A stretch of DNA of 64,000 nucleotides, taken from positions 160,001 to 224,000 of the forward strand of contig JBPOGI010000005.1 of the NCBI GenBank assembly GCA_051251855.1, in the 5' to 3' direction. Shown piece after piece: positions 28,843 through 46,984 of the stretch. The stretch comes from Roseibacillus sp. GTDB lineage: Bacteria > Verrucomicrobiota > Verrucomicrobiia > Verrucomicrobiales > Akkermansiaceae. The position numbers were made by a program, and so were the translations under genes. Each line of letters begins with the position of its first letter. Position 1 is the stretch's first letter. The notes below the pieces were generated by a model. It had not been told where the DNA came from. It saw only the letters and a program-made list of their open reading frames with translations, and made no database searches.

Positions 28843-28857
28843 AATCTAATCAGCGCC

Positions 28858-29622: not shown

Positions 29623-29689
29623 AAGTCAATATTTACTTACTTTAAAGAATACGTGATTACCTGATAAAATGATTGAAATTTGGCTCAAG

Positions 29690-29706: not shown

Positions 29707-29790
29707 TGTGACTTAAATGACGAGCGGTTATTAAACCGCTGTTCACCGCGCCCCGGGGGGGAGTGGGAAGTCAAAATAACCAGACAGACT

Positions 29791-30483: not shown

Positions 30484-30509
30484 GCGAATCACTTAATCTG
30501 ATTTTGAAG

Positions 30510-30540
30510 AGCGGCTCCGAGTGATCGGGGCCGCTTTTTT
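30510..30540 (+). terminator. Intrinsic terminator
   Basis: AGCGGCTCCGA-GTGA-TCGGGGCCGCT followed by a T-run. Confidence 0.85.
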
Positions 30541-30553
30541 GTGCCTTGCCGTC

Positions 30554-30826
30554 TTAGTCTCGTTTTACTAAGCGAATGGCGATGGCGTGGCTGGCGAGAG
30601 GAGCGGTGACGAAGATGAGAAGTAGGGTAACGAGGCCGAGAAAGATGACAAAAGGTTCAGGAAAGCGAATCATGGCACCGGTCATCATCAGAACGACACC
30701 AAGGGAGGAGGCTTTCGTTGCGGCATGAAGCCGAGCCAGGGCGTCGGGCATCCGAAACAGTCCAAGGGATGCTATGATGAAGCAAAGGCTTCCTAGTAGA
30801 ATCAGGAGTTCAGCAAGGAGGATCAT
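30554..30826 (-). CDS. mrpG: Mrp/Mnh antiporter subunit G
   Basis: GLFRMPD...RLHAATK; TAPLASH. Confidence 0.92.
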   Translation of the reverse strand: MILLAELLILLGSLCFIIASLGLFRMPDALARLHAATKASSLGVVLMMTGAMIRFPEPFVIFLGLVTLLLIFVTAPLASHAIAIRLVKRD

Positions 30827-31080
30827 GAGGAGGCAATTTTGGTTTTAAAGAGGCGGGAGAGGATCAGGGTAGAGATGAACCCTAACAGAGAAAGAACGAA
30901 GGCAAATTGAAGAGGGAGAGCATTCCGGTCGTGGAAGGCCAACACAATACTGAGGGCAATGAGTTCAAAGCTGAGAACATCAATCGCGATGACCTTGTCG
31001 ACTTCCGTGCGAGCGGTGAGGATGCGAAGGAGGGTCATCACGAGAGAGATGATGAGAAGAGTGGAAGCGATTGCTAGCAT
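30823..31080 (-). CDS. mrpF: Mrp/Mnh antiporter subunit F
   Basis: DKVIAID; LLGFIST; operon position. Confidence 0.88.
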   Translation of the reverse strand: MLAIASTLLIISLVMTLLRILTARTEVDKVIAIDVLSFELIALSIVLAFHDRNALPLQFAFVLSLLGFISTLILSRLFKTKIASS

Positions 31081-31097
31081 ACGAGTAGGGTGAGATT

Positions 31098-31418
31098 CTA
31101 AATTGGGAGGCGAGCGACTAGTTTTTCATAGCGCTCTTTGATTTCCGTCAGGGTGCCCTCGGGGTCGTCGCCACCGTAGAGCGAGTGCACGAGAATGGTG
31201 CGTCCCTCGTCGACCTCATCGACTGCGAGGGTGCCGGGGGTCATTGTGATCAGGCTGGCAAGCAGAAGGCGCTTGCGGGGAGAATCAAGATCGATCGGGA
31301 CTCGTAAGAGAACAGGATTGATACGAGAGCGAGGAGTGAGCACGTCGTAGCCCACGTAGAGCGCGCCGGCGACGATTTCCTTGAGGTAGTAAAAGGGGAA
31401 GATGAGTAGAGCGATCAT
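31098..31418 (-). CDS. mrpE: Mrp/Mnh antiporter subunit E
   Basis: LASLITMTPGT; VH. Confidence 0.92.
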   Translation of the reverse strand: MIALLIFPFYYLKEIVAGALYVGYDVLTPRSRINPVLLRVPIDLDSPRKRLLLASLITMTPGTLAVDEVDEGRTILVHSLYGGDDPEGTLTEIKERYEKLVARLPI

Positions 31419-32932
31419 GGAGAGATGGTAGAGCTGGAAGGCGTTCCTAGCACGGCGTCGAGATAAGCCTGGGGTTCGAGGAGAGACTGGGCGGCTGTAT
31501 GAGCGAGTTCAAAGACGGGACCGGCAGCGACTCCGATAGAGATGGTGACCACTGCGAGGGCTCCGGAAGTGAGAATAAGAACGAGAGGGGCTGGCTTGCG
31601 CACTTCGGAGGCGCCTTCCTCGGCTTCCCCCCAAAAGAGGTTTCGCCAAATCTTCAGCATCGAGAAAATGGTGAGAATTCCAACTAAAGCGACAAAGAGA
31701 GCGGCGAGCCAATCGCTATTGGCAAGAGTTGCCTTTAAGAGACTGAATTTCGCAAAGAATCCTGAGAGGGGAGGAAGGCCTGCTAAGGAGAGAGCAGGCA
31801 CTGCAAAAAGAAGAGCGATAATGGGTGATGAGCGGGCCACTCCGCGAATGGTCTCGAGGTTGGACGAGCCGGCGTGGTGCTCGACGAGAGCAGTCACGAA
31901 GAAGAGATTCGCCTTCACCACGATATGGTGGACGAGGTAGTAGATTCCGGCAGCGATGGCGAGGGGGGTGTAGATCGCAAGGGCGAGAGCCATATAGCCG
32001 ACCTGGCTGATGATATGAAAAGAGAGGATGCGCCGCATATCATTTTGACCCACCGCACCGAGTACGCCACCCACCATGGTGAGGAGGGCCAGCACGAGGA
32101 GTACGGTTTGATGGGGCAAGATACTATCGACCGCAAAGACCATTCCGAAGATGCGGAAAAAGGCGTAAAGACCGACCTTGGTCAGGAGGCCCGCGAACAT
32201 GGCTGAGAGAGCGGGAGGGACGGAGGGGTAGGAGCCCGGCAGCCAGAAGGCGAGGGGAATGAGAGCAGACTTGATTCCAAAAGCGCCCACGAGGAGAGCG
32301 GTAGAGCTGTTGAGAAGGAAGGAGTCGGGCGAGTCTTGCAGACGCAGGTGGAGATCCGCAAAGTTGAGAGTTCCTGTCTTTCCGTAAATGAGTCCCGCAG
32401 CGGCGAGAAAGAGGATGGAAGATACTAAGTTGATGACTACATAGCGCCAAGTTCCTGTTCGGGCGGCCTTGCCGGGAACGATGGCCATCAGCGCGAAGGA
32501 CGAGAGCAGCAGAACCTCGAACCAGACGTAGAGGTTGAACAAGTCACCGGTGAGGAAGGCGCCTGTAGTGCCGAGGCTAAGGGTCAAGATGAGCGCATTG
32601 ACCGACCGACGGCGATAGTGTGCTGGAAGTAGCTTGGCTGAGTAAATTAGGCAGGCAAGGACGACGAGTTGGCAAATTACAAGCATCATGCTGGCAAAGA
32701 CATCTGCAACCATCACGATGCCAAAGGGGGCCTTCCAACCCCCAAGCGCTAGTGCGTGTACCGACCCGTCGGCCGTCGCTTGCAGAAGGCCGATAGAAGC
32801 GAACAAGCCTAGGGAGGCTGCGACGATAGCGCACCCAACGGAGACGCGATTCTTCGTTTGGAAAAAATAGCTCAGCACGGCACCAATGAGAGGCGCGAGA
32901 AGGGCTAAGACGATGAGGTTTTCTGGGGTCAT
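31415..32932 (-). CDS. mrpD: Mrp/Mnh antiporter subunit D
   Basis: LGGWKAPFGI, TGDLFNLYVWFE, WLPGSY, GLPPLSGF. Confidence 0.95.
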   Translation of the reverse strand: MTPENLIVLALLAPLIGAVLSYFFQTKNRVSVGCAIVAASLGLFASIGLLQATADGSVHALALGGWKAPFGIVMVADVFASMMLVICQLVVLACLIYSAKLLPAHYRRRSVNALILTLSLGTTGAFLTGDLFNLYVWFEVLLLSSFALMAIVPGKAARTGTWRYVVINLVSSILFLAAAGLIYGKTGTLNFADLHLRLQDSPDSFLLNSSTALLVGAFGIKSALIPLAFWLPGSYPSVPPALSAMFAGLLTKVGLYAFFRIFGMVFAVDSILPHQTVLLVLALLTMVGGVLGAVGQNDMRRILSFHIISQVGYMALALAIYTPLAIAAGIYYLVHHIVVKANLFFVTALVEHHAGSSNLETIRGVARSSPIIALLFAVPALSLAGLPPLSGFFAKFSLLKATLANSDWLAALFVALVGILTIFSMLKIWRNLFWGEAEEGASEVRKPAPLVLILTSGALAVVTISIGVAAGPVFELAHTAAQSLLEPQAYLDAVLGTPSSSTISP

Positions 32933-33231
32933 TTAGAAGAGCTGCGAATGAGAAGAGTGAGAAGGAAGGCGAGGATGCCGAAGCCAATAACGATGGCAGT
33001 CAGGACAAGGGCTTGGGGTAGGGGATCTGCGTAATCTGCGGCATTGACGGGGCCTTTCCCTACGAAGGCAGCCGCATTGTGTTTCAACCCACCCGAGGAG
33101 AAAATGATGAGGTTGGCCCCTTGGCTGAGAAGAATGAGCCCGATGATAGCGTCGGTCTTACTACCTCCAAGGAGACGATAGATTCCGGCCGCAACGAGGA
33201 CGCCGATGGTGATGGCAACGAGGATTTCCAT
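32929..33231 (-). CDS. mrpC: Mrp/Mnh antiporter subunit C
   Basis: ADPLPQALVLTAIVIGF. Confidence 0.95.
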   Translation of the reverse strand: MEILVAITIGVLVAAGIYRLLGGSKTDAIIGLILLSQGANLIIFSSGGLKHNAAAFVGKGPVNAADYADPLPQALVLTAIVIGFGILAFLLTLLIRSSSK

Positions 33232-33234
33232 GAA

Positions 33235-35937
33235 TTAAAGGGGGCGAGGGATGTAGAAGTGACGGAGGTAATTGAGGGCAAAGCCCAAGACGGACAGCAT
33301 GACCCCTAAGTCGAAAAGGAGAGGGGTTCCAAGATGGAAGTCACCTCGGTGATACCAGAGTCCGGTGAAGAAGGTTTTCCCAATCAAGAGAGGCAAGAGC
33401 GCTGAGATGCAGGAGATGATGAGTCCCGCGACAAGGAGGCCTCGCGAGAGCTTACGTAACTTTGGAGGAGTGAGACGACCACGTTGGAATAGGATGGCGA
33501 GCCCAAAGGCAGAGGCCAGGATGAGAGCGGCGACGAAGCCACCGCCGGAGTAGTTGTGACCACGCCAGAAGAGCCAACCGGCGGTAACGACGAGAATGGA
33601 GATGATGGCGGTGAGTCCGGTGCCGATCCATGGCGTAGACTGGCCGGGGATTTCGGCTCTGGTGCGGGCGGCCCCCAAGGCAGCGTTCGCACCTAAAGCA
33701 GCAATGACGAGGACGGTAAGTTCTCCCAGAGTGTCAAGGGCGCGGAAATCCACGAGGATGACATTGACCACATTCGCTCCGTAGGCTGAGGGCTTACTTT
33801 CGGCGAGGTGGAAGTCGGAGATGGGATGGTCCCAATCGAGAGCAATCGCTTTGAGAATGAGAGCGGTGACGAGCACTCCAGAGGCAGTGGCGATTCCCAC
33901 CCGAAGGAACTTGGAAACACTTTCTTTGGGATGCTGTTCTTGCGCGCTGGTCCGGCTCTTAATGAGAGCTACGGCGAGGAGAAAAAGAGTGAGGGTTTCA
34001 GCTAGGAGCTGGGTGAGAGCGAGGTCGGGGGCGCTGAACCAAAGGAAGAGAAAGGCAACCAGCAAGCCAACGAATCCGAGGGAGACAAGCAAGGGAAGTG
34101 TTTCGCGAGTGCGCGCGGCAACGATGGCTGCACAAGCAATGAGGGGGGCGAGGCAAAGGAAGGCGATAGCGTTGCTATCGGCGCCGAACTGAATTTTGGG
34201 CCAAGTCTGGGGTTGGAGTGAGAGAAAGACGAGCGAGCCAATGGCAACCAGCATGAGGGCGAGGTGACTTTGGAGTGAGCCCTTTTCTAACAGTTTTCCG
34301 ATTTGCTTGGCGAGATTGCGCAGAGCTTCGATACCGAGATTGAAGAGATTCTCGAAGAGGGGGAGAAAGAGGTTGGGCAGAGGCGGGAGATTGGGTCGCG
34401 ACAGAACCTTCGCAACGAAGAGAGAAAGAAGTAGGGCGCTGATACCCAGTCCGAGAGCGGGAGTCCAGCCATGCCATAGCTTGTAGGAGGCTTCTGCTTC
34501 GGCGCCAAGGGCGGTGGCGGCAGGTCCTAAAAAATTATGGCTGGAAAGGGGAAGGGAGAAGGTTAGGAGCAAGGCTCCCAGAGCGGGAAGAATCATTGCG
34601 ATTGCCAAGGGGAGGGGAAGATCGCGTTTGGGTTCGACACGGTCTTGGCGCGAAAGCATGGGAATAACGGTACGGAGACCGAGGCCCAGAACACCGGCTG
34701 CCGCGATTGCAACAGCGATGGCGAGAAGGGGAGAGTGATACCAAGTCGCCTTGAGGAGATATTCTTTGCCAAGGAAGCCAGGAAGCGGAGCCACGCCAAG
34801 AAGAGAGGCAACGGATACGATGATTACGAGACCTGTAATTTTGGCGGTGTGAAAGGCACCTTTCAGCATCGAAAGCCGTCGTGTCCCAAACCGAATTTCT
34901 AGATTTCCTGCTGCGAGGAAGAGAGGGGCTTTGTACAGTGCATGGGCTGTTAGGAAGATAACGAAGCCGAGCTGCGCTGCTGGGGTGCCAATTGCGGCGA
35001 GGATGGTAAGGAAGCCAAGTGCTGCGAGAGTGGTCGAGGCGAGGATCGATTTGAGATCGTCTTCTCTCATTGCACGAGCAACAGCGGTGCCAATCGTCAG
35101 GATTCCCGAAGTGGCGAGGAGAGGAGTCCAGAGGGGGTGCTGGCTCATCATGGGTGCAAGGGTGGCGAGCAAAAAGACACCGGCTTTGACCATGGTTGCG
35201 GAGTGCAGAAAGGCCGAGACGGGAGTGGGGCCAACCATGGCGTTGGGTAGCCAAAAGTGGAACGGCCATTGCGCAGACTTGGTAAGAGCTCCGATCATGA
35301 CGAGGAGCATTCCAGCGGTGACCACTCCTCCCTCGGGTAGGGCTTCTTGGGAAAGAAGTTCGGAGATTTTGGCAGTGCCAAATCCTTGCTGTAGAAGAAT
35401 AAACCCAGCGAGTAGCGCGGCGCCACCACCGAGGGTGATGAGCATCGCCTGCGAGGCGTTCTCACGTGTCTTTTCATGCTGATGGTGAAAGCCCACTAAG
35501 AGAAAAGAGAAAAGAGAGGTCGCTTCCCAGAAAAGAAAGAGAAGGTAAAAGTTATCGGCCCAGATTACCCCTAACATCGCGGAGGTGAAGATGGCGAGGT
35601 AGCTCATTAAGGTGAAGCGCCCCGGCTTTTTCTCGAAATAATAACAGGCGTAAAGTTGGATGCAGGCGCCCAATCCGAGAATGAGTGCACCGAACCAGGC
35701 GGTGAAAGGGGTGAGCCGTAGCGCCCAGTCTATACCGAGCTCAGAAGCCCATGGCTTGTCTACGAGAATACTCTCTCCCTTGAGATCGAAGGCAATGAGC
35801 CATGCCGCCCCGCATCCAAAGATTAGGGCGGTTAGGACTCCGACCAAATTTTGCAATCGTTTGGGGAGACGATTCCCGACCGCAAAAAGCAGGAGGCAGA
35901 GAATCGGAAGGGCGAGAAGAATGAGGGGTGAGGACAT
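33235..35937 (-). CDS. mrpA: Mrp/Mnh antiporter fused subunit A+B (MrpA')
   Basis: Start MSSPLIL; TKSAQWPFHFWLPNAM, HSATMVKAG, APDLALTQ, VDFRALDT.GE, C-terminal MnhB domain RGHN.SGGGF. Confidence 0.93.
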   Translation of the reverse strand: MSSPLILLALPILCLLLFAVGNRLPKRLQNLVGVLTALIFGCGAAWLIAFDLKGESILVDKPWASELGIDWALRLTPFTAWFGALILGLGACIQLYACYYFEKKPGRFTLMSYLAIFTSAMLGVIWADNFYLLFLFWEATSLFSFLLVGFHHQHEKTRENASQAMLITLGGGAALLAGFILLQQGFGTAKISELLSQEALPEGGVVTAGMLLVMIGALTKSAQWPFHFWLPNAMVGPTPVSAFLHSATMVKAGVFLLATLAPMMSQHPLWTPLLATSGILTIGTAVARAMREDDLKSILASTTLAALGFLTILAAIGTPAAQLGFVIFLTAHALYKAPLFLAAGNLEIRFGTRRLSMLKGAFHTAKITGLVIIVSVASLLGVAPLPGFLGKEYLLKATWYHSPLLAIAVAIAAAGVLGLGLRTVIPMLSRQDRVEPKRDLPLPLAIAMILPALGALLLTFSLPLSSHNFLGPAATALGAEAEASYKLWHGWTPALGLGISALLLSLFVAKVLSRPNLPPLPNLFLPLFENLFNLGIEALRNLAKQIGKLLEKGSLQSHLALMLVAIGSLVFLSLQPQTWPKIQFGADSNAIAFLCLAPLIACAAIVAARTRETLPLLVSLGFVGLLVAFLFLWFSAPDLALTQLLAETLTLFLLAVALIKSRTSAQEQHPKESVSKFLRVGIATASGVLVTALILKAIALDWDHPISDFHLAESKPSAYGANVVNVILVDFRALDTLGELTVLVIAALGANAALGAARTRAEIPGQSTPWIGTGLTAIISILVVTAGWLFWRGHNYSGGGFVAALILASAFGLAILFQRGRLTPPKLRKLSRGLLVAGLIISCISALLPLLIGKTFFTGLWYHRGDFHLGTPLLFDLGVMLSVLGFALNYLRHFYIPRPL

Positions 35938-35977
35938 CAACGTGAGATCAGAAATCGGCGAGAAGCAGAGAAGCAGG

Positions 35978-36874
35978 CTATTGGCTAAGTCCCAATAATT
36001 GGCGCAAGAATCCAAGAGACGCGTTCTTTTGTTTCACCACAAGGACGGGGCATTCTGAATTTCGAATGATTTCGGCTGCCTGACTGCCAAGCACTGCAAC
36101 GGAGAGAGCATTCCGGCCTTGGCACCCGATGACTAGGAGATCGCCTTCTGCAGGCTGGCCGAGCTTGGAGATTTCTTTTCCAAAGGAGTAGCCAGTGAGT
36201 AATGTGCGTCTCCACTTGTTAGGTTGTTTGGAGTGTTCTCTCACGAAAGAGGCCAAGTTGTCAGCCTCGGTATCGAGGACTATTTTTTTTAGGGCGTCTG
36301 GGCTGATTGCCATGGTTGCTCGCGCGGTGGAAGGAACTCTGGTCAGGTGTATAGCCTCGAGCTTGCAGTCTCCTGCAGGGTCTAAGGTGGCAAAGGCTTG
36401 GGACCAATCAAGGACGAGCTTGGATAAATCCGAAAAATCGACGGAGGCGAGAATACGGCGCGGGGGCGTCGGTGGCCTACCAGGAATGACTAAAACGCCA
36501 ACCGGGCTTTTTCGCGCGAGTCTCTCTGCGAGAGCGCGGCCGTCGAAGTCATTGGCTGCAATCACCACAAGGTCGTATTCTCCTCCCGCAAGGCGATGAA
36601 GAATCGGCCCTAGTGGGGGCTCGTCGCTGGCATGAATTGAAAAAGGGAGTTCGCCAAGAGAGGCTGTGGCTTCTTGGGCGAAGGTCTTTTTGTCGTTGCT
36701 CACTGTGTTAACGCCTTCTTCGTGGGGATAGACTTCCAGTGGAACGGGTAGGCATTGGAGAATATCGATGCTTTGGGCTTGGGAGGCTACCGCAAGAAGC
36801 TTGGACCAGGCAAGGAGGGGTGCAGCATCATGATCTTGGGGAAGAACGGTGAGAATTTTTTGGAAGCGTTTCAT
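35978..36874 (-). CDS. Universal stress protein (tandem Usp domains)
   Basis: ILASVDFSD, DLLVIG..GR...LGSQAAEIIR...CPVLVV. Confidence 0.9.
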   Translation of the reverse strand: MKRFQKILTVLPQDHDAAPLLAWSKLLAVASQAQSIDILQCLPVPLEVYPHEEGVNTVSNDKKTFAQEATASLGELPFSIHASDEPPLGPILHRLAGGEYDLVVIAANDFDGRALAERLARKSPVGVLVIPGRPPTPPRRILASVDFSDLSKLVLDWSQAFATLDPAGDCKLEAIHLTRVPSTARATMAISPDALKKIVLDTEADNLASFVREHSKQPNKWRRTLLTGYSFGKEISKLGQPAEGDLLVIGCQGRNALSVAVLGSQAAEIIRNSECPVLVVKQKNASLGFLRQLLGLSQ

Positions 36875-36903
36875 TTGGTTAGTTGCGAACTAGGAATATA
36901 AAT

Positions 36904-36951
36904 ACACGAAAAAATTGTCATGTAAACAAATTCGCGACAAAATTCGCGCAA
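36904..36951. promoter_or_regulatory. Putative operator sites in the usp / CNNM divergent promoter region
   Basis: ACACGAAA-AAAT-TGTCATGT (36904-36923) and a weaker TCGCGACA-AAAT-TCGCGCAA (36932-36951); same motif recurs at 39308-39369. Confidence 0.6.
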
Positions 36952-37077
36952 TTTTGGATTATGTGCCGATAATTCGAAAAGAATGCATCATCAGAGAGAT
37001 AATTAGGATGAAAAAGAGCCCCTCTCTGCGGAGTTTCTTGAGTTTGTCTCCCTCCAACGCTTTCCTGTCCCCACTTC

Positions 37078-38112
37078 ATGCATGAACTCTTCACTTGGGC
37101 TCTCATTGTCCTGTGTCTCTCCCAATCCGCGATGTTCTCGGGGCTTAACCTTGCCCTGTTTTCTCTTTCTAAGCTTCAGCTCGAGACCGAGGTCAAAAAG
37201 GGGAGTCAAAGCGCCGTCCAAATTGCTCGGCTAAGGGGGGATGCCAATTTGCTCCTCTGCACTATTCTGTGGGGCAATGTGTCGGTTAACGTATTGCTCA
37301 CTATTTTGGCGGACTCGGTGGTGACGGGGATTTTTGCATTTCTGTTTTCTACGGTAGGAATCACTATTGTGGGTGAAATTATGCCGCAAGCGTATTTCTC
37401 TCGTAACGCGCTTAAGATGGGGGCGAGGCTTTCGCCGATCATTCGCTTCTATCGCATGCTCCTTTTTCCTGTCGCCAAGCCGAGCGCAATGTTGTTAGAC
37501 CGCTGGATTGGTCCGGAGGGAACCCGGTTTTTTAAGGAAGATGAGTTTGAGGTGATGCTTGATCAGCATATCCGTGAGCCATCCTCGGATATTTCTTACG
37601 CGGAGGGCCGGGGAGCATTGAACTTTTTGCGATTAGATGACCTGCGGGTCTCGGGCGAGGGCTCGCAGTTAGATTCTGATAGTGTGGTCGCCTTGCCGCT
37701 GCGGGATGGTAAGGCATATATCCCTGAAGCAGGGAGTGTGGAGGAAGCCATCTTATCCAAAGCGATTTCTGCCACTTCTCATACTTGGGTGGTCTTAGTT
37801 GATGAGAACGAGTATCCCCTCGAGTGCATGAACGTGGACGACTATCTGCGCGCTCTCTATGATGGCAAGATGGAGGTTCCTCTCCTGGAGTATTGTCAAA
37901 AACCCATCGTCACCACTGATTCGGATTTGACGTTGGATAGGGTGCTACCTCAGCTAGACGTCGAGTCCGAGCACCATGGTGACCGAGCTTTGGACCGCGA
38001 AGTGGTTCTCTATTGGGGAGATAGGACCAAGCGTATTATCACCGGAGCCGACCTTCTTGGGCGACTTCTTCATGGAATCGTCATTCGTCGCCAGGCTGAA
38101 AATTTGGATTAG
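37078..38112 (+). CDS. CNNM/DUF21 (CorB-like) membrane protein with degenerate CBS region
   Basis: SAMFSGLNLALFSL, LLCTILWGNV.VN, GEIMPQAY. Confidence 0.88.
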   Translation: MHELFTWALIVLCLSQSAMFSGLNLALFSLSKLQLETEVKKGSQSAVQIARLRGDANLLLCTILWGNVSVNVLLTILADSVVTGIFAFLFSTVGITIVGEIMPQAYFSRNALKMGARLSPIIRFYRMLLFPVAKPSAMLLDRWIGPEGTRFFKEDEFEVMLDQHIREPSSDISYAEGRGALNFLRLDDLRVSGEGSQLDSDSVVALPLRDGKAYIPEAGSVEEAILSKAISATSHTWVVLVDENEYPLECMNVDDYLRALYDGKMEVPLLEYCQKPIVTTDSDLTLDRVLPQLDVESEHHGDRALDREVVLYWGDRTKRIITGADLLGRLLHGIVIRRQAENLD

Positions 38113-38144
38113 AAAAAGGACAGGCCGTTTTCACAGCCTGTCCT
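38113..38144 (-). terminator. Intrinsic terminator between convergent genes
   Basis: AGGACAGGC/GCCTGTCCT stem with an A-run on the left. Confidence 0.7.
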
Positions 38145-38183
38145 CAAGGACGCGTCCTTACCGAATTTTTAAGCGGAACCTCT

Positions 38184-39305
38184 TTAGGCAGCACTGACTT
38201 TGCCTACATGCTTTCCGTAGGGAAAGTAGCGGAGAAGACACCCGACTCCGGTGAGTCGTTCAAGTGCTTCGCTGTCTTTTACGGTCTCGATGGGGATGTC
38301 ATTTCGAGTAGCTAATCGAACAAGTTCTTCTTTGAGTTCAGGCTCATCGAAATCATGGTCGATAATGAGCATATCGGCATATCCCTGCATCAGGGCCTCT
38401 CTGGTAGCACTGACCCCGGCTACTCCGAGGCCTCGACTCATGACTGCAGACTCCAGTTCCTCAACTCGGTCGTGACTCTCGATATGTTCATTGGCGGCAA
38501 AGACTTCCAAAGCCTCAACCACGATGGGATAGATGCCATTACGAGGGTTCGTGGGGAGAGTCGTGAGGAGCTTTTTCTTTAGCCGAGGGGGAAGGGCCTT
38601 AGTAAAGCGGGCGACTGCTTTAGGGCTTCCCGCGACCACGAGGTGATTGTGGCCTCGCTGTTTCATGAGCTCATCGACAATTCCGATCTTCTGCTGAAGG
38701 AACTGGTCATTTCGGTTCTTCTTGTGGTTCTGGTAATGCTCTCGTGTCCACTCGCGTCCGAGTCTCTCACGCAGCTCGGGTCGCTTAGTGAAGATTTCGC
38801 GGGTGACGGCCCCGACCACGGTTTCGACGATACGAGCTTCTTCCTCTGTCACCACCACGATCGCGAATCGATGATAGGTGTCCTTGGTCTCGATGACGGG
38901 ATAGATGTGAGGAAGGGTGTCGACGATCAGCTGGCTGTCGAGAGGGACACTGAACTCGAGAGGAAGGAAAAAGGGCCGCTCTCCCCATCGGGCGTAAATG
39001 GCAGCTCCCTTCGACCCCTTTGCAAGGGATGTTTCGAGATGGTTCTTAATTTCGGCGAAGGCGTCTTCAAAGTCCACCCTTCGCTTTCCGCCGAGGCGAC
39101 GACTCATTTCGAGGGCCTGTCTTTCGAAGGCTTGTAAAGTCATGGCGAGATTTTCCTCCAAGTTGACGAAGCAGCTGATGAGAGGACTCTCGTCGGGAGC
39201 CACGTCGGAAAGACGATTCAGCGCCTTCTTGAGCTGGTAGCTCGGGATGGCTGCGTGAGGAGTCGACGGGCGGCATTCTTCAATTTTCATTGGCATCTTG
39301 TTCAT
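38184..39305 (-). CDS. Bacterial aeRF1/pelota-like (baeRF, Balon-like) protein lacking GGQ
   Basis: ISCFVN and KGAAIY N-domain; middle domain AIVVV...ARI...LVVAG; C-domain G..ATREAL..G...LI...GVGCLLRY; catalytic loop reads GREWTREHYQ. Confidence 0.8.
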   Translation of the reverse strand: MNKMPMKIEECRPSTPHAAIPSYQLKKALNRLSDVAPDESPLISCFVNLEENLAMTLQAFERQALEMSRRLGGKRRVDFEDAFAEIKNHLETSLAKGSKGAAIYARWGERPFFLPLEFSVPLDSQLIVDTLPHIYPVIETKDTYHRFAIVVVTEEEARIVETVVGAVTREIFTKRPELRERLGREWTREHYQNHKKNRNDQFLQQKIGIVDELMKQRGHNHLVVAGSPKAVARFTKALPPRLKKKLLTTLPTNPRNGIYPIVVEALEVFAANEHIESHDRVEELESAVMSRGLGVAGVSATREALMQGYADMLIIDHDFDEPELKEELVRLATRNDIPIETVKDSEALERLTGVGCLLRYFPYGKHVGKVSAA

Positions 39306-39307
39306 AG

Positions 39308-39369
39308 TCTCGTAAACTATGTCACGAAATCAAAAGGGCGCAAATAAAAGCGTGAAAAAAATGTCACCT
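39308..39369. promoter_or_regulatory. Two putative operator sites between baeRF and the HTH gene
   Basis: TCTCGTAA-ACTA-TGTCACGA (39308-39327) and GCGTGAAA-AAAA-TGTCACCT (39350-39369), 42 bp apart. Confidence 0.62.
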
Positions 39370-39380
39370 ATTAACCCGGT

Positions 39381-39719
39381 ATGAGTAATCCTAAGATTGA
39401 ACCCACTAAAAACCAGATAGTTCCAGACCCAGCTTTCCTTGCCGAAAAGTTTTCAGGATGGACGTTTTTGACAAATCATACCCACGTGATTGTCTGCCTC
39501 TCCCGTGATTCGGCACTGACGGTTAGAAGTTTGGCGCTCCAAATTGGTATTACTGAACGTTCGGTGCAGCGAATTTTAGCAGAGCTCGAAGAGGGCGGCG
39601 TGGTGCAGAGAACTAAGGATGGGCGCTGCAATCTCTATAGCATCGACGAGGATTTTCAGCTGCGTCATCCCCTAGAGTCGCATCACACTGTGGCCGATCT
39701 CTTGAAGGCTCTCAAGTAG
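39381..39719 (+). CDS. Small winged-HTH transcriptional regulator (WTFLTNH family)
   Basis: WTFLTNH.HV, LALQIGITERSVQRIL.ELE..G, GRCN.Y, LRHPLE. Confidence 0.88.
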   Translation: MSNPKIEPTKNQIVPDPAFLAEKFSGWTFLTNHTHVIVCLSRDSALTVRSLALQIGITERSVQRILAELEEGGVVQRTKDGRCNLYSIDEDFQLRHPLESHHTVADLLKALK

Positions 39720-39735
39720 GGTTCACGCCTAGAAA

Positions 39736-41022
39736 TTAGCTTTCCTCGATGAGCGGTTTGCGAGGATCCATGAGCATCCAAAGAGCAATCGCCAAAAGGT
39801 TCAAGGTTGCTGCAAGGTAGAAGAAGGGTTCGGTTTCGCGCGAAAATGGTGCGTTGGGTCCAACCCAGGTAGATGCGGCGAACCAAGCCGTGAGGTAGGG
39901 GAAGGCGAGCGAGGTGATCACGGAGCCGACGTTGCCAGCCATATTCATTGTCCCGGAAACAGTGCCCGCATTCTTTCCTCCAATATCGACACAGAAGGAC
40001 CACGAAGGTGACAAGGTCATGTCAGCCCCGAAGACGGCGAGGGTGAGAAAGGCGACCGCACCGACAACATTGTCCATGTGAAGGCTCGCCAAGAGACCAA
40101 TGGCCGCGAGCGAGAAACCGATGATAGCGGGGATACGCCTCGAGAGTTGGAGGTTGCCGCTGCGGAAGAGGCGATCGACGAGAGCGCCTGAGGTCAGGTT
40201 GCCAAGAAAGCCACCGAGCAAGGGAATTGCGGCAGCGAACCCTGCTTTCTCGGGGGTGAGATCGTAGGTTTCTTTGACGTAAGGATAAAGCCAGGTCAGT
40301 GCGAAGAAGAAGGTGAAGTTGCTGCAGAAATACTGCACCATGGTGAGCCACATGTTGCGTGAACCCAAGACGTGGCCAGCAGTAAGGGCGGTGGTTGAGG
40401 TGGAGGGTGGCTGTCGGTTCTCGATAATATGATTTTTCTCATCCTCGGAGATGGACTTGTGATCAGAGGGCTCATCGCGAAACCAAGCATACCAGACAAA
40501 GGCCCATACAAACCCTAACAATCCAAAGACCACAAAGGTCATGCGCCAGCCCATGAGGTGAATCAGGGCTGGCATCGCAAACATGGCAGCGGCGCCACCG
40601 AGTCGGGAGGCGGAAAAGTTGATGCCTGTTACGAGCCCTCGTTCCTTGACTGGAATCCATGAAAAGGTGGCGCGTGCCATGCCGGGGAAGGCTCCAGCCT
40701 CACCAATGCCGAAGAGAAAGCGACAGATGAGAAGTGAGAGGAGGTTGAACGTTGCTCCGGTAAGGGCGGTAAAGAGGGACCAGAAGGAGACCACGGCTGT
40801 GAGGATTTTCCGAGGACCGAGTCGATCGGAGAGAGCTCCGGCGGGAGTTTGTGCAAGGGCGTATCCGATAGCGAAGATGGAGAGGACCCAGCCGAATTGT
40901 TTGTCGCTGAGATTAAACTCGCCAGTGATATCACTCTTGGCAGCCGAGATACAGGCGCGGTCGATGTAAAGAATAAGCGAGAGAACGAAGGTGGCGGCGA
41001 CAAACTTGTGGCGGGTTTTCAT
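39736..41022 (-). CDS. MFS transporter (ACS / sugar-acid type)
   Basis: YIDRACIS, G.LSDRLGPRK, RFLFGIGEAGAFP, SGTMNMAGN. Confidence 0.9.
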   Translation of the reverse strand: MKTRHKFVAATFVLSLILYIDRACISAAKSDITGEFNLSDKQFGWVLSIFAIGYALAQTPAGALSDRLGPRKILTAVVSFWSLFTALTGATFNLLSLLICRFLFGIGEAGAFPGMARATFSWIPVKERGLVTGINFSASRLGGAAAMFAMPALIHLMGWRMTFVVFGLLGFVWAFVWYAWFRDEPSDHKSISEDEKNHIIENRQPPSTSTTALTAGHVLGSRNMWLTMVQYFCSNFTFFFALTWLYPYVKETYDLTPEKAGFAAAIPLLGGFLGNLTSGALVDRLFRSGNLQLSRRIPAIIGFSLAAIGLLASLHMDNVVGAVAFLTLAVFGADMTLSPSWSFCVDIGGKNAGTVSGTMNMAGNVGSVITSLAFPYLTAWFAASTWVGPNAPFSRETEPFFYLAATLNLLAIALWMLMDPRKPLIEES

Positions 41023-42056
41023 GGCGTGATAACGGTGTGAGTGGCGGCGGATTGGTAGGCGAGTTCGACGAGACGAACGGAACGCAGGTAATCATCAGCT
41101 TCGGACTCGAAGGGAGCTTCGGCGAGAAAACGTTTCACAAAATGTTGCTGGGTGGCGTGAACGCAGTTGCCAGCGAAGCCCTCGGATGAGGGTTGATAGG
41201 GGTGAATCGTTGCTTCTTCACCTAGCAGTTGGATTTTGATTTCTCCGCTCTCGTTCAAGGTGAGGTGGCCTTTAGAACCGTCGAGTCGAAGCCGGCCAAA
41301 GGTGTAGCGAGGGTTTTCGATGCTTGCGTCGGCTTCGCCGTAGCGGTTGGCATCGAGAACGGCGCTGCCACCGGCTTCGAAGTGGCAGACGATGAGGGCG
41401 GAGTCCTCGCCTTTGATGACGGGATTGCGCTGAGCGGTGGTTGCGTAGAGGGAAGATACTTCGCCAAAGAGATAGCGGAATGTGTCGAGAAAATGGACGC
41501 CGGTTTCGAAGATGAAGAGGCGCTCGTATTCGCGGAAGAACGGCTGGCGAGCAAGGTAGGCATCGTCACCCCAACCATCACCCATGCGGCATTGAAAGTG
41601 GAGGTGGTGGAAGTCGCCGAGGGTGCCAGCCTTGAGAATGGATTTGATTTCGCGATACCAAGGCTGCCAGCGCCAGTTCTCATGAACCATGAAGCGCACG
41701 TCGGGGAATTGGTGAGCGAGTTCAATGAGTTCTTGGGTTTCTTCCCAAGTAGGAGCCAGCGGCTTTTGACAGATAATGTGGACACCATGCTGGAAGGCGA
41801 TGCGGCAGAATTCCAGGTGGGTCTGGGGTGGGGTGATGATGTCGACGAAGTCAGGCTTTTGCTCGATGAGCATTTTCTCGAAGTCGGAAGCAGAGTAACT
41901 ACTAGGAATCTCGTATTCAGCGGCCATCTCCTCGGCCTTTGCGAGAGTGCGATTGCAGTTGGCGACCACGTTGACTTCGGGGATGTCCTTCCACGATTGG
42001 TATTGAAAGCGGGCGAAGTAGCCAGCGCCGACGATGCAGGCTTTGAGAGAGGTCAT
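41019..42056 (-). CDS. Gfo/Idh/MocA oxidoreductase (resembles D-apiose dehydrogenase type)
   Basis: GAGYF, DIITPP, CQKP, VHENWRWQPWYR, ETGVHFLD. Confidence 0.85.
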   Translation of the reverse strand: MTSLKACIVGAGYFARFQYQSWKDIPEVNVVANCNRTLAKAEEMAAEYEIPSSYSASDFEKMLIEQKPDFVDIITPPQTHLEFCRIAFQHGVHIICQKPLAPTWEETQELIELAHQFPDVRFMVHENWRWQPWYREIKSILKAGTLGDFHHLHFQCRMGDGWGDDAYLARQPFFREYERLFIFETGVHFLDTFRYLFGEVSSLYATTAQRNPVIKGEDSALIVCHFEAGGSAVLDANRYGEADASIENPRYTFGRLRLDGSKGHLTLNESGEIKIQLLGEEATIHPYQPSSEGFAGNCVHATQQHFVKRFLAEAPFESEADDYLRSVRLVELAYQSAATHTVITP

Positions 42057-43417
42057 ACGGTTGTGAGTTTGGTGTAAGCTTCGGTGAGGGATTCGTCAGA
42101 GCCGACGTTGCCGGGGAAGATGACGTAGGCGAGACCGGGAAAGCGGGTTTCGGCGCCGAGAGTCCAAACGGGGATGCCAGGCAGGATTTGGCCAATAACA
42201 AGGGCCTTAGTGATACCAAGCGCGTCGGTGGCGATGGTGGAAGAGGTGATTCCACCTTTGGATAGAAGGAAGCGCGGTCGGAGGGTGATGTTCTTGATGA
42301 GTGAGACAATGGTGTCGGAGATGACTTGAGAGAGCTGAAGGTTTTTCTTCATGCCGTCGGCAACAACGACTTCACGGCTCGTGTAGAGAACCACGTTTTT
42401 ACCAAATGCGAGATAGGCGGTGACCTCATCTGCAAGTTTTGGGATAAGGGAGGCTGGTTGTTCGAGTGCTTCGGGGACGTTGAGCTCGATGGGGACGAGA
42501 TTGGGATCGCTCTTGATGAGGTGGGCGAGCTGGCGGGAGGTTTTTGGGACGTGAGAGCCGATGACGATGAGCCCCCCGTTGGGGTTGGGCTCGAGATCTT
42601 GGAGCTGCCATGGCTCGAGTGGCGGGCGCACGGGGATTCCCGCAAAGGTCTGTACGAAGGAGGCCGCAGTTCGGAAGAGAAAGTCTCGGTCGCTAGCATG
42701 AAGGGCGGTGGCGAGGACTTCGAGGTCGCGGCGCTCGGTGGCATTGATGATGCAGGTGCAGCCGTCGGGCAGGTTGGCGAGTTCTTCAGAAACGTCGCCA
42801 GAACGAAGCTGTTGCAGAGAGATGGACTGGACATCGACGGGGCTGCCGGATTTCTCGGCGAAATAGTCTGGGAGGTAGGAGTGAGAGAAAGGGAAAGCGT
42901 GGTCCTTGGCGAAGGGAGTGAGATGAGCGGGGGTGGCGTCATCGCCTTTGACGATGTAGTGAGTGTCTTCAACGGTGATTCGGCCCCCAGCCTCGAAGTA
43001 GGGGATGAAGAGAGTGGGTGCTTTGGGGAGGTTGAGGGTTTCTCGGAGGATGTTGATTTCGAGAGGAAAGTGGCCCCGAAGAGTGGAGTCGGAGCGCGAA
43101 ATGACCATGATCTCGTCTTTGAACTCTTTTAAAGTCGCTCCGAGTTCTTGGTGAAGCACGGTGGTTTGAGAAACAGTGAGCGCGCGGGAGTTGGTGAGGA
43201 TATAGAGAACGGGAGGAGCCTCTTCGAGAGCGGCGGCGATAGAAGCTTGGTCGAACTGAGTGAGGACGGGGACGTCGAAAACGGTCTGCGTTCCGGTAGG
43301 GTCGTCGTCTAGAACGACGAGAGTCTTGCCCGAGTCGGCGAGTTGCTGGTGAATCTGTGGTAAGAGATCGTGCGCCCAGACGGGTGGGAGATTGGCGGTG
43401 AGGTCAGCGATGTTCAT
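42053..43417 (-). CDS. Four-carbon acid-sugar kinase family protein (DUF1537; SBD_N + NBD_C)
   Basis: Start MNIADL; LDDDPTGTQT, SRSDSTLRGH, GSHV.KT..Q, KGGITSS, FPGNVG. Confidence 0.88.
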   Translation of the reverse strand: MNIADLTANLPPVWAHDLLPQIHQQLADSGKTLVVLDDDPTGTQTVFDVPVLTQFDQASIAAALEEAPPVLYILTNSRALTVSQTTVLHQELGATLKEFKDEIMVISRSDSTLRGHFPLEINILRETLNLPKAPTLFIPYFEAGGRITVEDTHYIVKGDDATPAHLTPFAKDHAFPFSHSYLPDYFAEKSGSPVDVQSISLQQLRSGDVSEELANLPDGCTCIINATERRDLEVLATALHASDRDFLFRTAASFVQTFAGIPVRPPLEPWQLQDLEPNPNGGLIVIGSHVPKTSRQLAHLIKSDPNLVPIELNVPEALEQPASLIPKLADEVTAYLAFGKNVVLYTSREVVVADGMKKNLQLSQVISDTIVSLIKNITLRPRFLLSKGGITSSTIATDALGITKALVIGQILPGIPVWTLGAETRFPGLAYVIFPGNVGSDESLTEAYTKLTTV

Positions 43418-44052
43418 GAAAGTTGGGCAAAGGCGCGACAGGGAGAACCATCGCCATCTTGAATTTTTAGAGGGAAAGCGCCGAAGGTGAAGTCGCGGTC
43501 GGCGGGGAGTTTGTCGAGATTGACGAGGCCTTCGACGATGGCGACTCCTCCGGCGAGGAGGATTTCGTGAATAAGGGTCACTTCGACTAGGTCGTTCACG
43601 TTGGCTACGGAAGGTGGTTCGACTCCGAGGATGCGCACTTGGTGGGTGACGCACCAACGGGCGAATTCTTCCGAGAGGCGGGGGAGTTGGTTGCGGAAGA
43701 GGTCGAGGTTTTCTCTATGTTTGGCCCAGCCAGTATGGAGAAGAAGGGCATGCCCTGAAGGAAAGTTTTGGGAAAGAGTTCCTAGGTGTTGAGGAGTGAG
43801 GACTTCGGATGGATCGGAATTGAGGTGAGCGACGCGAGCGGGACCAAGGAAGGTTTCTAGGGGCAGCTGGTCGATGGTGTTGCCCATGGGGTGAGTGCAA
43901 CCAAAGTGTTTGGGGGCATCCATGTGGGTGCCTGAGTGGGAGTAGAGGTGAAGGTTTCGGGCGTTCCAGCCGTCCTGCTTAAGATCCTTGGCCACGTCCC
44001 AAGAGACCCCTGGTGTTTCAGGGGTAAGCGTGGCGGTGAGGTCGATGAGCAT
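43414..44052 (-). CDS. Cyclase-family metal hydrolase (KynB-like)
   Basis: Start MLIDL; HSGTHMDAP.H, HEILL, VEGL, DGSPCR. Confidence 0.9.
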   Translation of the reverse strand: MLIDLTATLTPETPGVSWDVAKDLKQDGWNARNLHLYSHSGTHMDAPKHFGCTHPMGNTIDQLPLETFLGPARVAHLNSDPSEVLTPQHLGTLSQNFPSGHALLLHTGWAKHRENLDLFRNQLPRLSEEFARWCVTHQVRILGVEPPSVANVNDLVEVTLIHEILLAGGVAIVEGLVNLDKLPADRDFTFGAFPLKIQDGDGSPCRAFAQLS

Positions 44053-44078
44053 TGTGTGAGAGGCAAGAGTCGTTTTTT

Positions 44079-45143
44079 TTAGCACCCTCCGAGGTTTGCA
44101 ATGATTTTTTCGGTGAGCGAGGTGGTGGTTTCGGTGCCGCCCATGTCGGGAGTGCGGTGAGTAGGGTTGGCAAGGGTTTTGCTGACGGCGTCGCGTATAA
44201 GTTTGGATGCCTCGTATTGTTTAAGCCATTCGAGCATGAGGGCGGCCGAGAGAATGGTGCCGACCGGGTTGGCTTTGCCTTGACCGGTGATGTCGGGCGC
44301 GGTGCCGTGCGATGGTTGGAAGACGGCGCAGTTTTCGCCAATGTCGCCTGAAGGAGCCATACCCATCCCGCCTACGAGTCCGGCAGCGAGGTCGGAGAGA
44401 ATGTCGCCAAACATGTTTTCGGTGACGAGGACGTCGAAGGATTCGGGCCTCTGCACAAGGAAAAGGGCTGCGGCGTCGACGTAGATGTGTTCGGTTTCGA
44501 CCTCAGGAAAATCTTTGGCGACTTCGTCGAAGATTTCGCGGAAGAAGACCATGGTGGGGAGGACGTTGGCTTTGTCGACAAGACTACATTTTTTGCGGCG
44601 GCGCATCGCTTCTTCAAAGGCATAGCGACAGATACGTTCGCAGCCTTTCCGCGTCAGATGGAGGACGTCGCTGGCTGAAGAGCGGTCTTCGGGTTGCTGG
44701 GAGCCGCGCGCAGAGAAGAGGCCTTCGGTATTTTCGCGCACGATCACGAAGTCGATCTCTCCGGCTTGATAATTTTTGAGAGGAGAGTCAGCGGAGGAGT
44801 AGAGGTAGATGGGGCGGGGGCCAGCATAGAGGTCGAGTCGCTCACGAATATCGATTTGAGGGGTCATCTCCCGTCCGTCGGGCCAGCGAACACCGGGGAG
44901 GCCCATGGCACCAAGGAGAACGGCATCGGATTGGCGGCAGGCCTCGAAGGCGGAGTCGGGGAGGGGATTACCGGAGCGTATGAATTCGCCAGCTCCCACC
45001 GAATGTTCTTCAAAGGTCAGCGAGAGGCTAGGCTCTTTTTGCATGACTGCTTCTAAAACGGAAACGGCGGCGTTGGTGACCTCGGGTCCAATCCCGTCAC
45101 CGGGTAGGACTGCGATTCGAAATGCTCTATTGCTCACTCCCAT
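44079..45143 (-). CDS. Beta-decarboxylating dehydrogenase (isopropylmalate/tartrate/D-malate family)
   Basis: LPGDGIGPE, VRENTEG, VDKANV, NMFGDILSD, HGTAPDI.G...ANP. Confidence 0.9.
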   Translation of the reverse strand: MGVSNRAFRIAVLPGDGIGPEVTNAAVSVLEAVMQKEPSLSLTFEEHSVGAGEFIRSGNPLPDSAFEACRQSDAVLLGAMGLPGVRWPDGREMTPQIDIRERLDLYAGPRPIYLYSSADSPLKNYQAGEIDFVIVRENTEGLFSARGSQQPEDRSSASDVLHLTRKGCERICRYAFEEAMRRRKKCSLVDKANVLPTMVFFREIFDEVAKDFPEVETEHIYVDAAALFLVQRPESFDVLVTENMFGDILSDLAAGLVGGMGMAPSGDIGENCAVFQPSHGTAPDITGQGKANPVGTILSAALMLEWLKQYEASKLIRDAVSKTLANPTHRTPDMGGTETTTSLTEKIIANLGGC

Positions 45144-45163
45144 GAGTTTGCAATGATGAAGGC

Positions 45164-45565
45164 ATGTTTAACCAGCTTGATCATGTGGCGATTCTCGTAA
45201 AAAACACGGAAGAGGCCCTCACGTTCTATCGCGACACATTGAAGCTCAATGTCCTGTTGAGTGAGGAATTGGCAGAAGTGGGTGTTCGGTTGACTCACCT
45301 CGATGGCGGAAATGTGAAGATTCAGCTCGTTGAGCCTTTGCGCAACGATCATCCTTTGAAAGCGCAGTTACAGGAGCGTGGAGAGCATATTCATCACCTT
45401 TGCTGGGGGGTCGAGGATACGCGGGAGGCGATGGAAAGATTGGGAGATTTTGGTTTGGCAGCGAAGGAGGGAGAACCCCATGCGGCACCTCAGAATGGTG
45501 AAGCTGCCTTTATTGACCCGTCGCAGACACGCGGAATTCTTTGGGAGATGACGGGGAAGAAGTAA
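45164..45565 (+). CDS. VOC-family protein (methylmalonyl-CoA epimerase-like)
   Basis: LDHVAI.V, IQLVEP, IHHLC, FIDP..T.G.L.E. Confidence 0.85.
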   Translation: MFNQLDHVAILVKNTEEALTFYRDTLKLNVLLSEELAEVGVRLTHLDGGNVKIQLVEPLRNDHPLKAQLQERGEHIHHLCWGVEDTREAMERLGDFGLAAKEGEPHAAPQNGEAAFIDPSQTRGILWEMTGKK

Positions 45566-45571
45566 GTAGTA

Positions 45572-46984
45572 TTGATGATGAGAAAAATTGTTTCTGTGCT
45601 CGGAGCGACGCTGGCCATGCTGGCGGCGAAGGAGAGGCCGAATGTGCTCCTGATCTGTGTAGACGATTTGAGGCCGGAGCTAGGCTGCTATGGCAAGGAC
45701 TACATCCATTCGCCGAATATTGATGGTCTCGCGAAGAGGGGGGTGACTTTTGAAAAGCACTATGTGCAAGCGCCCACCTGCGGGGCTTCGCGGTATGCCA
45801 TGCTGACGGGGTGTTATGGACCGGCGGGCAATGGAGCTTTGTTTGAGCGGGCGGGTAAGAAGAACAAAGAAGAGGTTGGGGCAAGTCTTCCAGGTTATTT
45901 TCGTGAAAAGGGATACACGACCGTTTCAGTCGGGAAGGTTTCGCATCATCCCGGTGGACGAGGAGGGGCGGATTGGGATGACGAGACGAAGTTGGAAATG
46001 CCTGAATCGTGGGACCGACATCTTTTGCCGGCTGGGCCTTGGCAGCACCCTCGAGGGTGGATGCATGGATTAGCAAACGGAGAAATCCGGAAGAACCGCT
46101 CGGAGATGGATGTCTTTCAAGCAGCGGAAGGAGATGACTCGATTTACCCCGATGGAGTGATGATTCCAGTGGCGATTGAGCAGCTAGGAGTTTTGGCTAA
46201 AGAGGAAAAGCCTTTCTTTTTGGCTGTGGGGATTTTGAGGCCGCATTTGCCATTCGGTGCACCTAAAAAGTATTTGGATATTTATGAGGGAGCGAAATTA
46301 CCGCCGATTCCTCATCCTGAGAAGCCGGTTGGGAAGACAACATGGCATGGTTCGGGGGAGTTTATGAAATACAATCGGTGGGGAAAGGATCCTAATGAGG
46401 ATGCGGATTTTGCCAATGAGGTGCGTCTCCACTATGCGGCATGTGTGAGCTATGCTGATGCGATGGTGGGACAGGTGTTGACGGCTTTAGAGAACTCGGG
46501 TGAGGCTGAGAATACGATCGTTGTTTTGTGGGGTGACCATGGTTGGCACTTGGGCGAGCATGGAGTTTGGGGAAAGCATACTTTATTCGAGGAGTCGTTG
46601 CGTTCGCCTTTGATTGTTGTCGCTCCAGAGCAAGGAGTTTCGAATCAGGCGGCTGCTGCAATTGTCCAGTCGGTGGACATCTTTCCAACCCTATGCGAGT
46701 TGGCGGGGCTTGCGGTTCCCGATGAGCTGGATGGTCGTTCCTTGAAACCTTTGTTAGAGAATCCGAAGGGGCAAAGCCGAGGGTTTGCTTATGGCATTCA
46801 TACCAAGAAGCGGACAATTCGCACTGAGGATTATCGATACATCGAGCACGACGGTGGACATTGTGAGGTCTATGATCTCAAGAGTTCCCACAAGGAGACT
46901 CTCAATATTGCTGCACTCGACCTCCAACTGATGGAGAAGATGCGCGCGAAGTTGGCAGCGGAAGTTCCGACGAAAGCTAAGTAA
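45572..46984 (+). CDS. Sulfatase (iduronate-2-sulfatase-like, Cys type)
   Basis: PNVL.I.VDDLR, CGASR, GK..H, RPHLP, GDHG.HLGEH. Confidence 0.93.

Follow-up and report, generated by a model that had tools for sequence, protein, structure and literature searches.

A Gln-less baeRF-type protein with a conserved replaced loop and a Na+/pH/CO2 gene context in Roseibacillus, a possible Balon-like ribosome-binding factor

A 373-aa baeRF-type (aeRF1-fold) protein was found to carry a conserved loop without Gln in place of the GGQ/GGxSQ loop of its relatives. It is encoded at 38184..39305 on the reverse strand of the analysed DNA, a 64,000-nucleotide stretch of a Roseibacillus sp. contig (the window). 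The protein belongs to a clade, called here the GREWT clade after its loop, whose genes often lie beside genes for Na+, pH and bicarbonate homeostasis. We put the probability at roughly 55% that it is a non-hydrolytic ribosome-binding factor of the baeRF group, Balon-like in action, which arose separately from a GGWSQ-bearing ancestor. As a member of a Na+/pH/CO2 regulon it would be induced during Na+, alkaline or CO2 stress and would enter the ribosomal A site. There its basic, Trp-containing loop would dock beside the peptidyl-transferase centre, and ribosomes would be paused without hydrolysis and without Balon's HP contact or EF-Tu hairpin. Solved Gln-less relatives occupy the A site and inhibit translation (PMC10901736), and a translational shut-down role of baeRF proteins was predicted from their association with HPF (PMC6514570).

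Fold and replaced middle-domain loop

The reading frame is uninterrupted, and PF18854 (baeRF_family10) was the top Pfam family of its product, with 59.9 bits against a cut-off of 27.1. An AlphaFold model based on a 117-row alignment (mean pLDDT 82) indicates the three-domain aeRF1 fold that the first-pass annotation had described from the sequence. A codon-recognition domain, an RNase H-like middle domain and a Pelota/L7Ae domain are predicted, which places the protein in the aeRF1 superfamily and its baeRF clade. When the model was compared with solved structures (Foldseek, VIA-align), the Balon Msmeg1130 came first (Z 28.4, rmsd 3.5 Å, 334 aligned residues), followed by the Balon of P. urativorans (Z 22.7), Rv2629 (21.6) and eRF1/aRF1 (about 20.8). 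Msmeg1130 was also the best PDB sequence match, at E 1e-9. The strings GGQ and NIKS are absent from the translation, as had been noted, and the YxCxxxF motif of aRF1/eRF1 was not found in the protein. The motif GVGCLLRY, described earlier as the end of the protein, lies at residues 353-360 and is followed by 13 more residues.

The loop and the start of the next helix occupy residues 175-194 (RPELRERLGREWTREHYQNH; 38724..38783, reverse strand), with GREWTREHYQ at residues 183-192 (window 38730-38759). The loop region 161-190 was modelled at a pLDDT of only 50-63. For the loop alignment the query was combined with 116 of 120 listed homologues (466 were found), after exclusion of four rows, three of them short and one a database copy of the query itself. 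The consensus of these 117 aligned homologues was ELRxRxGREWT[RK]EHYxNH. R179 and W186 were present in all of them (117/117 each), G183 and E185 in 115/117 each and H194 in 108/117; residue 188 was R in 83, K in 23, Q in 6, H in 4 and V in 1. Mean column identity was 0.81 in the loop and 0.82 in the 131-145 linker, as compared to 0.48 in the N-domain and 0.60 in the C-domain. Loop length was constant in 28 core clade rows, and the loop varies in some more distant members of the list of representatives described next.

A profile search of representatives at 50% identity gave 4075 proteins at E up to 0.001, of which 150 were listed. Low among these were the four nearest GGxSQ proteins, in which GGWSQARYQ falls exactly over GREWTREHYQ. 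As this register is exact and the loop length is identical in the GREWT clade and the GGWSQ proteins, R188 takes the Gln position of GGxSQ, in agreement with the Arg assigned there earlier. Gln occurs at position 188 in 10/151 representatives, 4 of them being this GGWSQ outgroup. In an ungapped alignment to classical aRF1, GGWSQARY lies over GGQSAQRF and the catalytic Gln falls on the Trp that corresponds to the invariant W186, so that Gln is found at neither candidate position, 188 in the GGxSQ register or 186 in the classical one.

According to PMC6514570, the loops of most Gln-less baeRF families vary freely in length and are poorly conserved, and those of the Gln-bearing families are constrained. 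Judged by its alignments, the GREWT clade is unusual in being Gln-less and yet constrained in the loop. The high conservation and constant length, unlike the variable loops of Gln-less baeRF families, suggest that the loop is under selection for something. The loss of Gln is not unique to this clade, since other PF18854 proteins from Chloroflexota likewise lack it. Altered or Gln-less loops (GGWSA or long and Gly-rich) were seen in five Chloroflexota PF18854 proteins (loci L168, L210, L217, L221, L231), and at L212, L216, L223, L224 and L226 the loop is 3 residues longer with the Gln kept; from these sets we conclude that loop remodelling occurred several times among PF18854 proteins. L245, L248 and L257 encode 263-aa PF18854 proteins that end before the C-domain and carry GGWAA. 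A His-based pH sensor was not supported, with 10.6 vs 11.6 His per protein in the two groups compared.

Relatives and comparison with Balon

Trees were built without the loop, N-loop and insert columns, a quick one with 62 rows (17 of 79 candidates were thinned out) and a careful one with 36 of these rows. In both, the GREWT proteins formed a single clade (100/98) and the close GGWSQ proteins were its sister group (100/100); the distinct subfamily suspected in the first-pass annotation thus has its own branch. The two groups together were nested in other PF18854 proteins, apart from baeRF family 3, whose rows include members over the AOC03_06830 cut-off. A union of the GREWT clade with the Balon-type rows was rejected (AU p 0.034, LG+G4), in trees where the GGWSQ rows had been picked as nearest, Msmeg1130 and Rv2629 are absent and the root is the family 3 outgroup only, with no archaeal root. 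Because Gln-bearing PF18854 proteins are still the sister group when the trait columns are dropped, the clade's loss of Gln looks independent of that in the P. urativorans-type Balon.

GREWT and GGWSQ proteins have W186, Y191, H194 and the PHxYPL linker in common, as well as PF18854 as best Pfam family over its cut-off; the GGWSQ proteins, like the GREWT proteins, carry Trp at the classical Gln register. They differ in the loop, where Gly-Gly is replaced by Arg-Glu and Gln by Arg/Lys in the GREWT clade, in the shorter N-loop of the GREWT proteins and in PF18854 score (about 56-86 bits, as compared to 98-158 for core members). This profile is broad, being over cut-off in 7/14 control genomes, four of them archaea. 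Hydrolysis by GGWSQ proteins is only predicted, and our literature searches found no experiment demonstrating it. Family 10 of PMC6514570 is described by a well-conserved catalytic-loop Gln and a two-beta-strand insert in the Pelota domain, and the protein studied here has R188 and no Pelota-domain insert. The family 10 list in the supplement of that paper is all actinobacterial, so 'family 10' refers here to the Pfam profile only. Matches to PF18859 or NF041024 at E up to 1 and the GGxSQ motif were both absent, which sets the protein apart from acVLRF1/VLRF1.

The protein resembles aRF1/eRF1 in fold and domain order. Many clade members also have a zinc ribbon, in the place where PMC6514570 locates that of aeRF1. 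It differs from aRF1/eRF1 in having no NIKS, YxCxxxF or GGQ and in scoring 32.9 bits with TIGR03676 against a cut-off of 234.7. With Pelota/Dom34 it shares a catalytically inactive middle domain, as predicted here from the loop, and an insert-free C-domain of similar sequence (E 4e-5). The N-domain, in contrast, is aeRF1-type, and the structural alignments with Pelota/Dom34 cover about 190-215 of 373 residues.

The suggestion of a Balon-like factor was upheld in part. Fold, loss of Gln, a stress context, HPF neighbours at some loci and a Balon as the closest solved structure are on its side, and strict Balon membership did not stand. Balon, Msmeg1130 and Rv2629 have three traits in common, namely an extended decoding-centre loop (HP motif) with no NIKS, the absence of GGQ, and a C-domain insertion that is a beta-hairpin or larger in the EF-Tu-binding domain (PMC10901736, Suppl. 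Fig. 5). NIKS and GGQ are missing here too, but the extended N-loop and the C-domain insertion are not found. The N-domain loop that follows the first strand (residues 48-56; 39138..39164, reverse strand) has no HP and is not conserved, and Balon-type and GGWSQ proteins have about 3 residues more in it. At sequence level its length is 9 residues in this protein and 6-10 in the clade as a whole, vs 10-12 in the Balon-type rows and 12-13 in those of close GGWSQ proteins, the difference in length to Msmeg1130 being small. In the P. urativorans Balon (8rd8_B) an HP follows the first strand, and we infer from the sequence that this is the HP motif of the paper. YP135-136 was rejected as a counterpart, because GGWSQ proteins have it too and its alignment partner in Msmeg1130 is another HP, located in the N/M linker.

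The C-domain insertion site (residues 316-325; 38331..38360, reverse strand) spans 10 residues and holds no insert; Balon-type rows have 29-31 residues there, and Msmeg1130 and Rv2629 are longer by about 26-27. In the model, strand 310-316 leads straight to helix 322-334 with no hairpin between. A CxxC..CxxC zinc ribbon occupies this site in 34/79 clade members, and 32/33 Verrucomicrobiota are without it.

In profile searches PF18854 was over its cut-off and all three NCBIfam Balon models stayed far below theirs (NF052287 21.2/330, NF052288 54.9/480 and NF052289 43/320 bits, score/cut-off). The E-value of 1e-9 to Msmeg1130 compares with 1.7e-4 to the AOC03_06830 model, and identity to the Balons is 13-20%. 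The Msmeg1130 model gave up to 113 bits with Chloroflexota PF18854 proteins and 29-56 with GREWT clade members. The top structural match would therefore reflect which structures have been solved rather than special kinship. The loop of Balon is a variable lasso and that of the GREWT proteins is fixed and conserved, and the GREWT branch is separate from that of the P. urativorans type (baeRF family 3). By the structural traits of its authors, read at sequence level, the GREWT protein is not a Balon. As the features that bind the decoding centre and EF-Tu are absent, less can be inferred from the Balon structure than the fold match would lead one to expect.

Gene neighbourhood and candidate operator

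In 185,579 species genomes, relatives were encoded at 244/297 pattern matches. The GREWT clade is patchy and occurs in at least 12 named phyla; in the sample of the window's phylum 4/401 genomes match, the window genome included, which has one copy of the gene. As for second copies in 50 of the 80 source genomes, two GGWSQ proteins and one core PF18854 protein with GGWSA were seen, and co-occurrence with a GGWSQ paralogue is uncommon. PLSDB, searched for a plasmid location, gave no match for the window protein or a GGWSQ relative. Among the literature matches listed, mostly open texts, we found no paper on the GREWT clade, although Balon datasets could include members. Searches of the PMC6514570 supplement, whose examined parts give accessions rather than sequences, did not find GREWT.

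The neighbourhood set consisted of the best 80 of the 244 loci and includes kin (33/79 Verrucomicrobiota). Neighbour clusters were named from one representative each, three for HPF. NhaR, Alx/TerC, NhaA, HtpX and carbonic anhydrase were over the NCBIfam cut-off, with MrpD just under, and SbtA, P-II, an ion channel, an M50 protease and HPF (2/3 seeds) were assigned by Pfam. NhaR is a Na+-responsive activator of nhaA, Mrp is a Na+/H+ antiporter, SbtA/SbtB is a bicarbonate uptake pair and Alx is associated with alkaline pH. Within flanks of up to 6 kb, a winged-HTH gene was found at 23 loci, NhaR at 22, Alx at 15, Mrp at 14, Usp at 13, NhaA at 12 (the next gene on the same strand at 10/80), HPF at 11, SbtA at 8 and carbonic anhydrase at 5. 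HtpX occurred at 5/80 loci, M50 proteases at 8/80 and the ion channel at 7/80. At least one core marker (NhaR, NhaA, Mrp, SbtA, carbonic anhydrase or Alx) was present at 56/80 loci, in 11/12 named phyla; the NtrC marker, which also matches plain receiver domains, was excluded from this core set.

Two control sets were used. In the best 80 of 477 GGWSQ metagenome loci, which are closely interrelated and have less flank (297 vs 758 kb), core markers were found at 0/80. When only loci of 4 kb or more were counted, the figures were 54/75 for the clade vs 0/35 for GGWSQ. With matched 1.5 kb flanks, core markers or the HTH gene were found at 45/79 clade loci vs 0/40 other baeRF loci. No p value is given, because we derived the markers from the test loci themselves, the control sets are narrower and related loci do not count independently. 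These counts bear out the stress locus that had been proposed for Balon-like genes, and the specific Na+/pH/bicarbonate context is new relative to that annotation. Among the matches listed, no publication was found that links Balon-like factors to NhaR, NhaA, Mrp or SbtA.

The HPF count of 11/80, with no such neighbour detected at 69/80 loci, is a lower bound, since the HPF profiles missed the window genome's own HPF genes; no test-versus-control comparison was drawn for it. Short HPF/RaiA-type genes adjoin the clade gene at L043:2192-2575, L056:7131-7484 and nine further loci, in most cases along with NhaR and frequently also with Alx. As their profile misses the HPF genes of the window genome, they may be a distinct subtype. 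The window genome has a long HPF on contig C6 and a second, weak HPF-family match at C7:210275-210526 (L167; 24.9 bits, just over the cut-off).

In the window, the gene is divergent from a winged-HTH regulator of the TFLTNHTH type (39381..39719, forward strand), a type present in 23/80 related loci. It is convergent with a gene for a CNNM-domain membrane protein (37078..38112, forward strand; PF01595), which has the membrane domain and no Pfam CBS match. An intrinsic-terminator-like hairpin of 13 pairs, a consensus match only, lies right after the stop codon (38116..38145, reverse strand), so the gene is probably monocistronic here. Beyond the CNNM gene lies an operon for an Mrp-type cation/H+ antiporter (30554..36015, reverse strand), with a universal stress protein as first gene (35978..36874, reverse strand; PF00582), then a fused A/B subunit and five smaller subunit genes. 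The large subunit was named by Pfam, A, C and D by marker profiles, and E, F and G from size, order and hydrophobic sequence only. Elsewhere in the window, 811-1863 (reverse strand) is an ion-transport (channel-like) gene of the family that adjoins the clade gene at the seven ion-channel loci; no operator site was found before it. Positions 1-8000 show a strong positive GC skew (0.27-0.45) and a GC content above the rest of the window.

Upstream of winged-HTH genes we found an 18-bp palindrome, which in a leave-one-out test beat all 40 base shuffles in 20/24 regions. A matrix trained on 23 other genomes, with the window excluded, was scanned over the 4.96 Mb window genome. Its first rank was window position 36905, 31 bp before the Usp-Mrp operon and 173 bp before the CNNM gene, and together with a site at 36919 it forms a candidate operator pair in this intergenic region (36905..36936), so that the best site of the genome is common to the operon and the CNNM gene. 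Rank 2 lies before a carbonic anhydrase gene (C10:49761) and rank 6 before sbtA of an sbtA-P-II pair (C1:88972), and the candidate operator thus connects unlinked genes on two other contigs. Between the 38184..39305 gene and the regulator, a candidate site at 39351..39368 scored 14.8 (genome rank 20), a score as high being found in only 0.33% of 3319 background upstream regions. A weaker candidate lies at 39309-39326. Site 39351 could serve autoregulation of the HTH gene only.

Most other matches in the top 20 were unrelated or a dispersed repeat. About five of them have flanking sequence in common and look like such a repeat rather than operators (about 30 bp or more, at C6:738065, C1:464611, C1:1299075, C10:7660 and C1:270800), and may be insertion-sequence ends. 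C1:861327, near the second carbonic anhydrase gene, was rejected as an operator because it sits at the start of another gene. In the window genome, no site was found before the second carbonic anhydrase, the ion-channel gene, the second CNNM gene, both HPF genes or the adjacent MFS gene. A palindrome common to the NhaR-adjacent copies did not stand out in 12 upstream regions, one of them mis-anchored. No riboswitch or known RNA motif reached the gathering threshold in window 28000-48000 or at 14/80 loci, apart from one tRNA. From the pattern of these sites, the winged HTH and the operator possibly define a CO2/bicarbonate/pH regulon of Verrucomicrobiota. Our literature searches found nothing on the TFLTNHTH-type regulator or this candidate regulon.

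Proposed function and alternatives

The reading of a non-hydrolytic, Balon-like factor was weighed against four others. It is unlikely that the protein works in a Pelota-like way in rescue or quality control, clearing or splitting ribosomes that have stalled, for instance during synthesis of the neighbouring membrane proteins, or binding 50S-peptidyl-tRNA instead of parking ribosomes. Such a role would suit the insert-free C-domain, which resembles archaeal pelota (the second PDB sequence match), the weak conservation of the N-domain and the neighbours, mostly membrane proteins and including HtpX and M50 proteases; non-catalytic baeRF rescue was itself proposed in PMC6514570. The whole fold, however, matches the Balons much better (Z 28.4 vs 13 or less for pelota), no recurrent GTPase or splitting ATPase was seen among the neighbour clusters listed, and the HPF neighbours also speak against it.

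We regard as rather improbable a ribosome-independent role as an RNA/tRNA-binding or sensing protein in a pH/Na+/CO2 regulon, with the loop serving another ligand. Both Balon-type contact elements are lost, the spread of the gene is patchy even within the phylum, and it is repeatedly the first gene beside a regulator, just before a transporter such as NhaA. Every solved relative with the aeRF1 fold nevertheless acts in the ribosomal A site, and in different lineages the clade gene is paired with at least two unrelated regulators. Such pairing is more easily explained by membership of a regulon than by a dedicated partnership. Nor is a cis role required, since in the window a terminator-like hairpin follows the gene and the Mrp operon has its own candidate operator.

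Quite improbable is an active factor with another chemistry, in which the conserved Arg, Glu, His and Trp would release the peptide or cut tRNA without Gln. Gln-independent activity has been proposed for some Vms1-type proteins. Descent from a Gln-bearing group and the invariant R179 and W186 with the nearly constant H194 would agree with activity, and a fixed loop length with high conservation is the pattern tied to catalytic families in PMC6514570. On the other hand, neither register holds Gln or small residues, Arg-Glu having replaced Gly-Gly. Rv2629, a shown inhibitor, also has Gly-Trp at the loop position, and the variation of the loop in some distant members does not suit a catalytic role.

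Least probable is an ordinary general-stress Balon homologue with neighbours merely co-located in mobile stress islands: stress operons are the typical setting of Balon genes, the broad search of PMC10901736 would probably recover a GREWT protein, and Usp genes are nearby at some loci, but the markers form a narrow set that neither control contains, the Na+/pH/CO2 context is kept across phyla despite different regulators and transporters, the candidate operator reaches unlinked genes on two other contigs, and the Balon neighbours given in that paper (Hsp20, OsmC/OsmY, HdeD, MarC, EmrB, RtcB) differ from the set found here.

Within the preferred reading of a separately arisen, non-hydrolytic ribosome-binding factor, a more specific and doubtful proposal is that the protein is a second, independently evolved aeRF1-derived pausing factor, wired to Na+, alkaline and CO2 stress, with no EF-Tu hairpin and with an Arg/Trp loop that shields the peptidyl-tRNA ester. 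Base-catalysed hydrolysis of the ester would be held off during the recovery of the cytoplasmic pH through antiporters and bicarbonate uptake. Such shielding at high pH is hypothetical and draws on general chemistry and on the nascent-chain protection proposed for Balon (PMC10901736).

Neither the superfamily nor its general role is new; in the literature searched we found no account of the independent origin, of the conserved non-catalytic loop or of the link to a Na+/pH/CO2 regulon. Although Balon is handled as a single family, its homologues come from a loose search, iterative HMMER from Balon or aRF1 with at least 300 aa (PMC10901736). The GREWT clade points to a repeated origin of Gln-less aeRF1 derivatives and to their specialisation by stress. 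Sister proteins with loops of equal length, GGWSQ and GREWT, offer a natural pair for asking whether GGWSQ proteins release peptide and what the replaced loop does, and clade members with and without the C-domain insert bear on the need for EF-Tu in such hibernation. Should the regulon link prove false, the gene adds another homologue to the Balon-like ones; if it is true, a connection that we did not find in the literature searched would tie Na+/pH/CO2 homeostasis to the control of ribosomes.
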